Origin: an uncultured Bacilli bacterium | GTDB lineage: Bacteria > Bacillota_I > Bacilli_A > RF39 > UBA660 | Direction: 5' to 3' | NCBI GenBank assembly: GCA_934086955.1 | Contig: CAKOIN010000004.1 | Location: forward strand, 46,719 to 110,718 | DNA: 64,000 bases | Part shown: positions 32,075 to 34,785 of the stretch, in pieces | Numbering within the stretch: position 1 is the stretch's first letter | How the letters are laid out: each line of letters starts with the position of its first letter | Notes under the pieces: generated by a model | Seen by the model: the letters and a program-made list of their open reading frames with translations, nothing else | The model's database searches: none | Told to the model about the DNA's origin: nothing | Program-made: the position numbers and the translations under genes

Positions 32075-33187
32075 TTACCTCAAATATGCAAATGCATCTT
32101 GTTTATTCTTCCTATAATGCTTTAATAAAGTCTTAAATCCTTTAATAATCTCCTTATCAGTTTTCTCTTCCTTAGCAAGAGCAAGTTTAAATTCCTCTTC
32201 TAATATCTTTTTAAACTCTTTCATAGAATGATTTCTGTTATTAGCAAGAAAATCTTCCATTAACTTTTTAAGAGCATATCTATTTATTTGATCTTTCTTA
32301 ATGGTTTTATTGTTATCCATTTCATTTAAAATAACATAATCTAAGAAAAATGCTCCATCCATTCTATTTTTAGTTTTCTCTTCATCAACTTTCTCATTAG
32401 AATCATTAACTTCCTTTTTATCTTTAACATCATATTGTTCAATAAATTCCCATAATTCTAATGCTTTTTGAAAGTTAGGATTCTTTAATATAGTATTTGT
32501 TTTTCTAATTGGTGACTTAACAGGAGCAGCATTACCAAGTTCTTTAACAAATGGTGTCTTTAAGAAATCTCCAACAACAAGTTCAATCTTAGCAATTCTT
32601 TGTTCAACAGATTCACCACTACTTGAAACACCACCTAAATCTTCTTGTAAATTAGTCTCCATATTTAAACTAATATTAACTTCCTCATTACCAAGTTTAG
32701 TTTTACCTGTGTAAGTCATAACTTTTTTCTTTTTAGCATAACTACCACTCGCAGTAACTTGCTTTCTTAATGTAAAGAAATAATTAAGATTATTAAGTAA
32801 CGAAATAATAAATCTATTTTCATAAATATCAAAACTTTCTTCTTTATGTACATTAAGAACTTTACTTGGAGTAATAGTTCCATCTTCATCAACATCTTGA
32901 ATTAAATCAGTATGTTGAGCCAAATGTTTTATAGTTTCTTGACTAATCTTCTTAGCCTTTTCAACAGGAACAACTTCTTCTTCCTGCATAATGAATCTTT
33001 TAGGATTTCTAATAATGTTGTCTAAATAAACAAGAGTTTCTTCAATCTTATCTATCCATGAATAATCATACTCAACACTTTGAAAAGAAGAATTAACAAC
33101 AACATGAGAATCATTAGATCCACAAAACTGCTCAATTGCTTTATTATCAGTATCATCTAATAAATTTAATAATTCATTCTTATTCAT
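32075..33187 (-). CDS. 370-aa cytoplasmic-looking protein, partner of the McrB-like NTPase; McrC-like role possible but not shown
   Basis: ATG with AAAGGA RBS; 5-nt gap to the downstream TasA-like gene and 17-nt gap from the NTPase gene; no signal peptide; size similar to McrC. Confidence 0.55.
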   Translation of the reverse strand: MNKNELLNLLDDTDNKAIEQFCGSNDSHVVVNSSFQSVEYDYSWIDKIEETLVYLDNIIRNPKRFIMQEEEVVPVEKAKKISQETIKHLAQHTDLIQDVDEDGTITPSKVLNVHKEESFDIYENRFIISLLNNLNYFFTLRKQVTASGSYAKKKKVMTYTGKTKLGNEEVNISLNMETNLQEDLGGVSSSGESVEQRIAKIELVVGDFLKTPFVKELGNAAPVKSPIRKTNTILKNPNFQKALELWEFIEQYDVKDKKEVNDSNEKVDEEKTKNRMDGAFFLDYVILNEMDNNKTIKKDQINRYALKKLMEDFLANNRNHSMKEFKKILEEEFKLALAKEEKTDKEIIKGFKTLLKHYRKNKQDAFAYLR

Positions 33188-33204
33188 AAAAATCCTTTCT
33201 TATA

Positions 33205-34785
33205 TTACATAGCTTTCTTAAGTCTAGCTAAATATTCTTTACATTCACTCATATTCTCTTTACCAAAAGTTTTATCTAAAAATTTAACATATCCATCAAT
33301 TTCATCTCTAATAAATGATAAGTTTAATTGTTCAAACTTCCTTAAAACCTTTTTACAAAGAATATAATCGAATCCATCAAGTTCAGTACCACCACATGCT
33401 ACATATACTGGAACAAATTCTTTTATATGTTTAACAATACGGTTACCAAAAGCAAGTCTAAAATGTTCAATAACATAATTATCCATATCTTCTAGTTTAT
33501 TTAAAGTATCTTGTGAAACAGGATGCTCAACTTTTGCTTTATTAAATAAACTTTCAAGATAACTACTATTAATTCTAATGCCAGGAGTATCAGGAGCATC
33601 AAATGCTTGACCTTTATCATTTATATCTATTGGCATAGCACGGTCGTAAACCTTATCAGTAACCATAAATGTTGAATCATCGTTATTGATTGTACCAATA
33701 TACCACATATTATCCGGTATTTTAAGTTTACCATCTGGTAAATGCTTAGGATCGTTTGGCCATACATTAGGAACCAAATCTATAACCCACTCATCACGAG
33801 AAGGCATTTCTAGAATAGATAACATTTCAGCAAAATAGTATTCAACTCTGGCAATATTCATTTCATCAAGTATTGTTAAATACATTTCATCATTATAACT
33901 TGCTTCATACATTGCTTTTAAAACTTCTGTTTCATTAAACTTTTTAGTAAATTCGTTGAAATATCCAAAAAGCTCAGTTCTATCTCTCCAAGATGGTTGT
34001 ACAGAAGCAATAGTTGCATCTCTACTAATAAATTTACCCCAAGCATAAGGAAGTGATGTCTTACCTGTACCAGAGATACCTTGTAAAATTACAAGTCTTG
34101 TTGCTCCAAGAGCTGCCACAAATAATCTAATAATTTTAACTTTATAATAAAGTTTCATTCTTGAAGCTGCAAAGTTTCTAAATGTATCACATAACTCTTC
34201 AAGAGTAAATGTATTCCCAAAATCTTCAGGTGGTTTATTAGCATATTCTTCATCAATTTGTGTTAGTTTAAAGAATCTACTACCATTGGCTGCTTCAGTT
34301 GGAACTTCTTCAGCAGTTTCTCCTTCTTCACTACTTTCACCATTTTCTTCTTTAATTTCTTTTGGCATATCCATTTTAATATTACTTCCACTAACTTGTG
34401 GTGTAAGTCCAATTTGAGAAACTTTTAAAGCATACAGCTCTTCCTTTTCTTGATTAAGTCTTATAACATCTCTATCAAGTTTAGCAACTTCTTCAAGTAA
34501 ACTTTCTTGTTCTACAAGAGTCTTTCTAAATCTTAAATATTTTCTTATTAAAAGATATATTAAAAAACATATACCAGCTAAAAAAGCAAATACTAAAAGT
34601 ACAGCAAAACCTACAAGTATCCATTGACCAACCGAAAATTCTGAAGAATATTCTTTTAATATTGAAAGATATGCTTTAAAATTAAACATTTTACCAAAGC
34701 CTCTAACAATACCCATAAAAATATTTATAACTCCAGAAAAGAATTGTTCCATAAAATCATATAAAAATCTCATATATGTTGACAA
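33205..34785 (-). CDS. Membrane-anchored McrB-like AAA+ (AAA_5) NTPase: two N-terminal TM helices, a coiled-coil/acidic linker, then the NTPase domain
   Basis: 'LQGISGTGKTSL' Walker A, 'LTILDEMNIARVE' Walker B, 'YIGTINNDDSTFMVTDKVYDRAMPIDI' (McrB/AAA_5-type sensor region); apparent TTG start 6 nt after AGAGGTGA (the first ATG lies 12 nt inside). Confidence 0.6.
   Translation of the reverse strand: MSTYMRFLYDFMEQFFSGVINIFMGIVRGFGKMFNFKAYLSILKEYSSEFSVGQWILVGFAVLLVFAFLAGICFLIYLLIRKYLRFRKTLVEQESLLEEVAKLDRDVIRLNQEKEELYALKVSQIGLTPQVSGSNIKMDMPKEIKEENGESSEEGETAEEVPTEAANGSRFFKLTQIDEEYANKPPEDFGNTFTLEELCDTFRNFAASRMKLYYKVKIIRLFVAALGATRLVILQGISGTGKTSLPYAWGKFISRDATIASVQPSWRDRTELFGYFNEFTKKFNETEVLKAMYEASYNDEMYLTILDEMNIARVEYYFAEMLSILEMPSRDEWVIDLVPNVWPNDPKHLPDGKLKIPDNMWYIGTINNDDSTFMVTDKVYDRAMPIDINDKGQAFDAPDTPGIRINSSYLESLFNKAKVEHPVSQDTLNKLEDMDNYVIEHFRLAFGNRIVKHIKEFVPVYVACGGTELDGFDYILCKKVLRKFEQLNLSFIRDEIDGYVKFLDKTFGKENMSECKEYLARLKKAM

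Follow-up and report, generated by a model that had tools for sequence, protein, structure and literature searches.

The window analysed here is a 64,000-nucleotide (nt) stretch of DNA from an uncultured Bacilli bacterium (GenBank assembly GCA_934086955.1, contig CAKOIN010000004.1, positions 46,719 to 110,718), with a low GC content of about 19-32%. A first-pass annotation, made from the letters alone, had pointed to two minus-strand open reading frames (ORFs) resembling the genes of McrBC, the textbook GTP-driven restriction motor. Both ORFs were recovered exactly as annotated: a McrB-like GTPase of the NxD clade, 526 amino acids (aa) long and with a TTG start, is encoded at 33205-34785, and a 370-aa partner resembling the N-terminal part of McrC is encoded at 32075-33187. 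The pair lies in a string of genes that includes SipW-like signal peptidases and secreted proteins, all on the minus strand, as are all features below unless another strand is given. The GTPase gene is preceded by a gap of 100 nt, as had been reported, and is separated by 17 nt from the partner gene, which is followed after 4 nt (5 nt in the annotation) by the gene for a 384-aa protein. A GAGGTG ribosome-binding site is located 8 nt upstream of the TTG codon, and homologues align from residue 1. Related loci were compared in two sets: set 1 comprised 84 loci, and set 2 comprised 80 independent metagenome loci seeded with more distant membrane-anchored relatives.

The GTPase and its McrC-like partner

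From its N-terminus to its C-terminus, the GTPase contains an amphipathic segment, one transmembrane (TM) helix, a short helical segment, an acidic linker, and an AAA+ GTPase domain. The Walker A motif GISGTGKTS (aa 236-244; 34054-34080), the Walker B motif LTILDEMN (aa 303-310; 33856-33879), and the signature N367-N368-D369-D370 (33676-33687), which lies in GTINNDDST (aa 364-372) and is followed by DRAMPIDI (aa 381-388), were all present. Walker A, D307, E308, N367-N368-D369-D370, and R382 were invariant in 15 aligned homologues; R382 aligned to R348 of McrB, and the signature reads N-x-D-[D/E/Q/G] in relatives. Escherichia coli McrB in the PDB (6hz4) matched aa 228-416 (E 2e-5), and the NCBIfam McrB model matched with 6.7e-5, far under its equivalog cut-off, suggesting a similarity to McrB that is weak but reproducible and real. 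These results agree with the initial description of the Walker motifs and the sensor region as McrB-like. The accompanying assignment to AAA_5 did not hold, as no Pfam family matched the full-length GTPase at E 0.01, and AAA_5 (PF07728) reached 15.3 bits on the isolated domain (E 0.021), under the gathering score of 22.

The N-terminal part had been read as two TM helices followed by a coiled-coil linker. One clear TM helix was found at aa 55-80 (34546-34623; KD19 3.03). The upstream segment, aa 7-35 (34681-34767), is amphipathic, hydrophobic, and conserved (RFLYDFM.QFF.G...), with a KD19 peak of 1.19 in the window and a median of 1.33 in 86 homologues, of which nine reach 1.6; it is therefore a borderline TM segment, which may either lie outside on the membrane surface or form the first arm of a hairpin. 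Accordingly, the GTPase would be either a single-pass protein with a conserved outside segment of about 54 residues or a weak hairpin. The sequence RKYLRFRK directly follows the TM helix, a positive-inside pattern that clearly predicts a cytoplasmic GTPase domain. Next come a conserved helical segment (aa 88-127; 34405-34524; LVEQE.LLEEV..L..DV..L.QEKE), with a 3-4 hydrophobic spacing over about three heptads from L96 to L117, and an acidic linker of variable length (aa 128-168; 34282-34404). An amphipathic stretch is thus present where a coiled coil had been proposed, but a crude heptad test on the helical segments of the GTPase and the partner gave no excess over shuffles. No domain, including any DNA-binding domain, was matched in the N-terminal part in Pfam scans.

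The membrane module differs among relatives. Four near relatives of the GTPase domain (P0371, P0402, P0448, and P0462) carry quite different membrane modules: in one, a signal peptide, an extracellular domain of about 270 residues, a Pro/Thr/Glu-rich linker, and one TM helix precede the GTPase, and multi-pass N-termini of 300-450 residues occur in the others. A crude hydropathy count scored 66 of the 150 nearest representatives of clusters at 50% identity as multi-TM proteins. Another relative, P0035 (646 aa), contains an internal duplication of about 130 residues over the NxD region and the next helices, which is either real or an assembly artefact.

The McrC-like nature of the partner was borne out by a match to Pfam DUF2357, the McrC N-terminal domain, over aa 55-146 (32750-33025; E 1e-12), within which Y122-E123-N124-R125 are invariant. 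An AlphaFold2 (AF2) model built from 100 homologues, with a predicted local distance difference test score of 81.8, consists of long beta-hairpins and a helical bundle, followed by a C-terminal half of helices and a single strand that ends in a predicted 48-residue helix. As the first-pass annotation had noted from the sequence, there is no sign of a PD-(D/E)xK nuclease: the core was not found in the AF2 model, and no conserved acidic or lysine pattern suggesting a nuclease was seen in the alignment. The partner has kept the GTPase-activating N-terminal domain of McrC, and the nuclease has been replaced by a helical extension. Across relatives, the length of the partner ranges from 361 to 968 aa, wholly through charged or coiled helical extensions, with about 110 to about 700 residues in the C-terminal extension.

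Two further ideas about these extensions were considered and rejected. The long variants contain only charged or coiled helices or a fused SipW domain, which rules out a retained nuclease. A "ruler", in which the length of the GTPase linker would track that of the partner, gave a correlation of +0.33 overall that was absent in set 1 and negative in set 2. A separate observation concerns locus L165 (5338-6708; P0186, and also P0187 on a second contig), which belongs to a close relative: here the partner continues in frame, after its first 201 residues, into an almost entire RmuC-family domain (Pfam E 4e-52). The partner part is 78% and the GTPase 91% identical, and the downstream half of the cluster is gone; the arrangement is either a natural deletion or fusion or an assembly chimera at a low coverage of 2.5x.

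Signal peptidases, fusions, and secreted neighbours

Two S26 signal peptidases are encoded in the same string of genes. The first (36224-36778) is SipW-like, has GSMEP and THRI motifs, and carries a TM helix at each end; the second (28708-29253) is a SipW-like peptidase of the endoplasmic reticulum (ER)/archaeal type. Pfam Peptidase_S26 matched both, and both contain the SMEP and TH(R/K)I motifs. The second peptidase matched human SEC11A (E 2.5e-7), supporting the ER/archaeal (SipW) type, and a PDB search with the first alone yielded no significant match.

The association of such peptidases with the pair was found throughout the related loci. In set 1, the GTPase and partner genes were adjacent in 84/84 loci, and a SipW-like peptidase was present in 83/84 (the one locus without it is on a short contig). 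In 50-54 of these loci there were relatives of the 230-aa and 364-aa proteins described below, the 230-aa type lying directly before the 364-aa type in most related loci, and the full gene order of the window was found again in about ten. The GTPase is the best-conserved gene of the cluster across the 84 loci (58-68% identity, against mostly 30-50% for SipW, partner, and subunits). The loci of set 2, whose GC content ranges from 27 to 66%, share a core order of one to five 364-aa-type genes, a 230-aa-type gene, SipW, GTPase, partner, and SipW. When a locus was counted as complete if it contained the two genes with flanks of 1.5 kb or more on either side, 123 of the 164 loci were complete, and all 123 had a SipW-like gene within 300 bp of the pair. 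The outer flanks vary by genome and contain housekeeping genes, such as mraZ and a penicillin-binding protein (PBP) gene in L001 and rpsF-ssb-rpsR in L003. The annotation had proposed checking whether homologous pairs sit in defence islands or in fibre loci; they sit beside SipW-like peptidases and secreted beta-sandwich genes, and not in defence islands. In the commonest arrangement among gut metagenome-assembled genomes (MAGs; L014 3519-8000, L020, L026, L033, and L080), a unit made up of a SipW-like gene and a following gene of about 190-210 aa is repeated up to three times upstream of the GTPase gene; next come two genes, of about 310 and 330 aa, that match no family.

The pair had been called uncommon, which is not the case. 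A scan of one genome per species gave at least 586 confirmed stretches, relatives of the GTPase formed 779 clusters at 50% identity (E <= 1e-30), and both GTPase and partner belong to large families. The best 80 of these at least 586 stretches all come from MAGs of uncultured gut or rumen bacteria that carry labels such as Bacilli, Tenericutes, and Mycoplasmatota, including two closed chromosomes of 1.26 and 1.55 Mb; we take these organisms to be, probably, RF39-type Bacilli. A metagenome scan seeded with the single distant protein P0386 returned no confirmed locus.

Direct evidence for a joint function came from fused genes. Partner and peptidase share one ORF of 984-1057 aa in L114, L119, and L135, where the DUF2357 partner is followed by a long charged linker, a first TM helix, Peptidase_S26, and a second TM helix, and the fused peptidase domain keeps the GSMEP and THRI motifs. 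In the related locus L118, the partner and peptidase genes are separate and overlap by 11 nt. Because the three fused sequences are mutually different, they do not go back to one sequencing error. The McrC-derived protein and the signal peptidase thus act as one unit, and the fusion shows that the C-terminal extension of the partner reaches the membrane.

The remaining genes of the string encode mostly secreted or membrane-anchored proteins. Upstream of the pair, the string begins with a 371-aa cytoplasmic protein (38604-39719) that has no family match and is kept only in the closest relatives, followed by a 230-aa paralogue with an N-terminal membrane anchor (37904-38596) and a 364-aa secreted beta-sandwich protein (36797-37891), a putative fibre subunit. 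Downstream of the pair lie paralogues of 384 aa (30916-32070), 352 aa (29854-30912), and 191 aa (29270-29845), each with a SYAWF or AYAWM signal-type motif, and, beyond the second peptidase, the gene for a giant 2443-aa surface protein (21370-28701), a probable cargo or adhesin whose homologues contain LRR_5 repeats. In the 364-, 384-, 352-, and 191-aa proteins and the giant protein, a hydrophobic stretch is followed by S/A-Y-A/S-W-F/M, which reads S-Y-A-W-F in the 364-aa protein. A C-terminal W-x-EG-x-D motif recurs in the 230-, 364-, 384-, and 352-aa proteins, in most of which x-[DE]-C follows (W.EGQD.DC in the 364-aa protein); the 191-aa protein has only a degenerate trace of it.

These neighbours had been described as TasA-like. 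No TasA or camelysin profile of Pfam or NCBIfam matched the window paralogues even at E 10, scanning the five paralogues and the 371-aa protein against Pfam and NCBIfam at relaxed cut-offs gave nothing usable, and a 47-sequence profile of the 364-aa family returned only noise and no TasA chain from the PDB sequences. The best fold matches of the predicted 364-aa structure were weak and included the Saci_0406 thread subunit and the TasA fibre. Since nothing beyond the signal-peptide motif and these weak fold matches lies behind the TasA-like label, it is not established. The neighbours are best described as secreted beta-sandwich proteins with a SipW-type signal and may be donor-strand fibre subunits. 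The giant protein has its signal-like hydrophobic stretch and AYSWF at about aa 125-146, after a very basic region of about 120 residues that holds another hydrophobic segment; either its start codon was called too far upstream, or it would have an unusual cytoplasmic N-terminal extension.

Classification and probable role

Bell et al. (eLife 2024) described a major branch of McrBC systems in which the NxxD motif has lost one residue to become NxD, and the residue after it is usually E or another D (PMC11090510). In the parts of that paper considered here, CoCoPALM is a system composed of a GTPase with a TM and coiled-coil (FtsB-like) module, a McrC homologue, and signal peptidases, with coiled coils usual on both homologues; it is linked there to pilus assembly in one paragraph, without experiments, and its analysis is deferred to a later paper (PMC11090510). 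No follow-up paper on CoCoPALM was found in a literature search. The NNDD signature of the window fits NxD or NxxD. In the 150 nearest cluster representatives, 141 read N-x-D followed by D (108), E (29), Q (3), or G (1); with a constant N, a constant D at +2, and a variable +3 position, the signature is NxD. Of these 150 proteins, 57 resemble CoCoNuT in their long, soluble, K/E-rich N-termini, and at least one TM segment is present in 85.

The locus is very likely a CoCoPALM-type pair, a system that thus already had a name, and it agrees with CoCoPALM in all features that gave a clear result. An NxD GTPase with a TM and helical module, an adjacent DUF2357 protein, associated signal peptidase genes, and helical McrC extensions are all present. 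For the FtsB-like module, the TM helix and a conserved helix were found, and FtsL matches stayed below threshold and the heptad test was not significant; for the coiled coils, the helical segments of the window are short on both proteins, and homologous partners reach 300-700 residues of charged helix. The peptidase adjacency in every complete locus, the partner-peptidase fusions, the SYAWF cargo family, and a partner as short as 370 aa are not mentioned in those parts of PMC11090510. New in the present analysis are thus the fixed neighbourhood of pair and peptidase, the fusion, and the account of the cargo proteins.

Compared with McrBC of E. coli and Thermococcus, the window shares the AAA+ GTPase with Walker A and B motifs, a sensor Asn, and an Arg at the position of McrB R348, as well as a partner with the McrC N-terminal stalk domain, in adjacent genes of matching order. 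It differs in that a membrane anchor replaces the DNA-binding N-terminus, the signature is NxD instead of NxxD, the partner has no PD-(D/E)xK nuclease, and the context is not one of defence or restriction-modification. With CoCoNuT (CnuB/CnuC), the window GTPase shares the NxD branch and 40-45% identity over the GTPase domain, and McrC homologues of the CoCoNuT group often have no active nuclease. In contrast to the TM anchor and signal peptidases of the window, which has no nuclease, CoCoNuT GTPases are described in the parts considered here as having soluble coiled coils of 300-550 residues and no TM segment, and as lying beside HEPN or other nucleases (PMC11090510).

A second likeness is to the tapA-sipW-tasA locus of Bacillus subtilis and to archaeal thread and bundling-pilus loci, where a dedicated ER/archaeal-type peptidase also lies beside secreted beta-sandwich proteins with a conserved aromatic motif at the predicted cleavage site. 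The window differs from these in having several paralogous subunits and two peptidases; moreover, no NTPase is known for TasA, archaeal thread, or bundling-pilus fibres, the assembly machinery of which has been described as unknown (PMC9715654). Type IV pili offer a functional analogy only: they combine a signal peptidase of their own with a hexameric NTPase on the cytoplasmic side of the membrane and with subunits anchored by an N-terminal hydrophobic helix. The families are unrelated, however: the GTPase of the window is not a PilB-type ATPase, and beta-sandwich subunits with type I-like cleavage contrast with the class III signal peptides of pilins.

Taken together, these data suggest that the pair probably serves the biogenesis of SipW-linked surface proteins (fibres or adhesins) rather than DNA restriction. 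The intact GTPase core, the nuclease-free McrC-like partner, the membrane anchor, and the SipW linkage all support the first-pass reading of an McrBC-type motor repurposed at the membrane; the annotation was largely right and partly confirmed, its claim of rarity excepted. The most likely cargo in this genome would be the secreted beta-sandwich proteins with S/T-Y-A-W-F signal peptides and the 2443-aa repeat adhesin; both the fibre and the giant adhesin probably figure prominently on the surface of these gut bacteria with small genomes. Across hundreds of bacterial species, mostly uncultured and represented by metagenomes of the gut, the rumen, and other sources, a McrBC ring-and-stalk module that has lost its DNA reader and its nuclease is tied to a signal peptidase. 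A functional link would clearly exemplify the recruitment of a defence motor to cell-surface biogenesis and would add a missing piece for TasA/thread-type fibres, and the partner-peptidase fusion is a concrete, testable interaction.

By analogy with McrBC, six GTPase subunits may assemble into a ring that their TM helices tether beneath the membrane. The beta-hairpin stalk of the partner would be inserted in this ring and elicit sequential GTP hydrolysis, and its C-terminal helix would extend to SipW, to which it is covalently fused in some lineages; the GTPase cycle could then drive or gate signal-peptide cleavage and the transfer of subunits to the growing fibre. The domain identities, the lack of a nuclease, the cytoplasmic GTPase domain (from the positive-inside pattern), the invariant linkage of the genes, and the fusion are shown by the data; we infer the hexamer, the stalk-in-ring geometry, the use of GTP, the SipW contact in this organism, and the fibre. 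The specific mechanical coupling of GTPase, partner, and SipW is a tentative proposal. Equally speculative, though conceivable, is the wider idea that CoCoPALM is a new fibre-assembly machine of single-membrane bacteria, in which the GTPase ring turns or pulls a McrC-derived shaft joined to SipW. If true, the energy or the timing for cleaving and polymerising donor-strand-type subunits on the outside would come from nucleotide hydrolysis in the cytoplasm, and this would be the first NTP-driven route known for TasA/thread-like fibres.

Several points weigh against a role of the pair in SipW-linked biogenesis. In the window itself, no SipW gene directly adjoins the partner, since an inserted pilin gene intervenes on the GTPase side and three genes intervene on the opposite side. 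The lengths of the partner and the GTPase linker do not covary consistently. The closest characterised and predicted relatives, McrBC and CoCoNuT, are defence systems, and the support comes from sequence and gene context. In addition, an energy requirement is not expected a priori for fibres that have no known NTPase (PMC9715654).

This last point makes a regulatory switch a serious rival, although we consider it unlikely. Instead of acting as a motor, the ring and its partner would set the timing, place, or number of fibres in a manner like that of FlhF or MinD; for example, SipW could be held inactive until GTP is hydrolysed, with no mechanical work on the subunits. The gene linkage and the fusions would serve this explanation equally well, no energy source is known to be required by donor-strand fibres (PMC9715654), and a partner extension that varies from about 110 to about 700 residues with no matching change in the GTPase linker suits a tether better than a rigid shaft. 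On the other hand, all catalytic residues are strictly conserved, and McrB-family rings with a McrC stalk are, in the parts of two studies considered here, processive hydrolysers stimulated by the stalk (PMC6624300, PMC7680126).

Still less probable is a membrane-tethered defence or conflict system of the CoCoNuT/McrBC lineage that guards the fibre, for example by sensing a phage that uses the fibre as receptor and triggering export shutdown or abortive infection. The annotation had offered such a membrane-tethered system as its other option. The GTPase belongs to the NxD branch that holds the predicted CoCoNuT defence systems, and it matched the PADLOC candidate PDC-M26A (9e-38, 128 bits, aa 209-328). 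However, this match covers only about 120 residues, at positions 312-432 of the 724-position profile, and membrane-anchored and coiled-coil relatives scored alike (128-163 bits); the match runs through the GTPase domain only. There was no full-length PDC-M26A match that would place the locus in the PDC-M26 system, the PADLOC scan of the partner gave no match, and literature searches on PDC-M26 and on SipW/TasA/AAA+ found nothing relevant. The RmuC nuclease-family domain that follows the first part of a close homologue of the partner in L165 and on a second contig might also be cited for defence, but this junction resembles a deletion or assembly join that removed the downstream half of the cluster. 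A defence role requires an effector, which is absent here, as the pair has no nuclease or other effector, and it is less likely for this reason. Furthermore, occurrence in hundreds of species with high conservation and fixed neighbours is unlike that of patchy defence islands. The surroundings of the pair are not a defence island, and no defence genes lie in the window: the flanking genes include a UvrD/PcrA-type helicase, methionyl-tRNA synthetase (MetRS), YfhO, ABC transporters, and a sortase-domain protein, and the sole other PADLOC match in the window was that of the helicase to the generic UvrD/GajB models.

A cell-division factor, in which an FtsB/FtsL-like TM-helix module brings the GTPase to the divisome and the SipW link is secondary, is very improbable: FtsL models matched this module in 11/22 members, and L001 adjoins mraZ, rsmH, and a PBP gene, but the best match (E 6e-4) reached 19.7 bits against a curated cut-off of 42.45, other bitopic proteins (GspM, ATP synthase b, and MscL) matched about as well, and the conserved neighbours are SipW and secreted proteins, not the mraZ genes.

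Other features of the window

The gene between the first peptidase and the GTPase (34886-36133), which encodes a type IV pilin N-terminus followed by DUF285/PARCEL repeats, resembles an insertion, flanked by 36134-36223 and 34786-34885. In L005 and L006, which are relatives with 89% identity, this gene is missing and the GTPase gene follows sipW after about 115 nt. The pilin-DUF285 gene has its own promoter-like site with an extended TG (36183-36156), a terminator-like hairpin upstream (36207-36191), and a weak AT-rich hairpin past its stop codon. A promoter scan gave 83 sites against 87 expected from shuffles and hence no excess. On the plus strand, a 171-aa ORF (34776-35291) runs antisense to the pilin gene and the start of the GTPase gene; its translation is a low-complexity sequence rich in Leu, Ile, and Asn, and it is almost certainly not a gene.

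Outside the main cluster, the Rfam model n00280 ("C. difficile sRNA included into helicase gene") matched 19456-19553 with 66.9 bits, against a gathering score of 65.2. The matched segment is part of the UvrD/PcrA-type helicase gene, so conservation of the coding sequence probably explains the score. Three small ORFs of 204, 185, and 197 aa with no Pfam match were located at 44157-46061, 5 kb from the main cluster. In two of them, SYAYY and TFAWF follow a hydrophobic stretch, and these ORFs may encode further substrates of the two peptidases. A second group of surface-protein genes lies at 9591-14440 and comprises a DUF6568 protein (13889-14440), a pilin-type N_methyl protein with DUF6273 (12690-13808), a 535-aa protein with a C-terminal sortase domain (11013-12620), and two unannotated genes.

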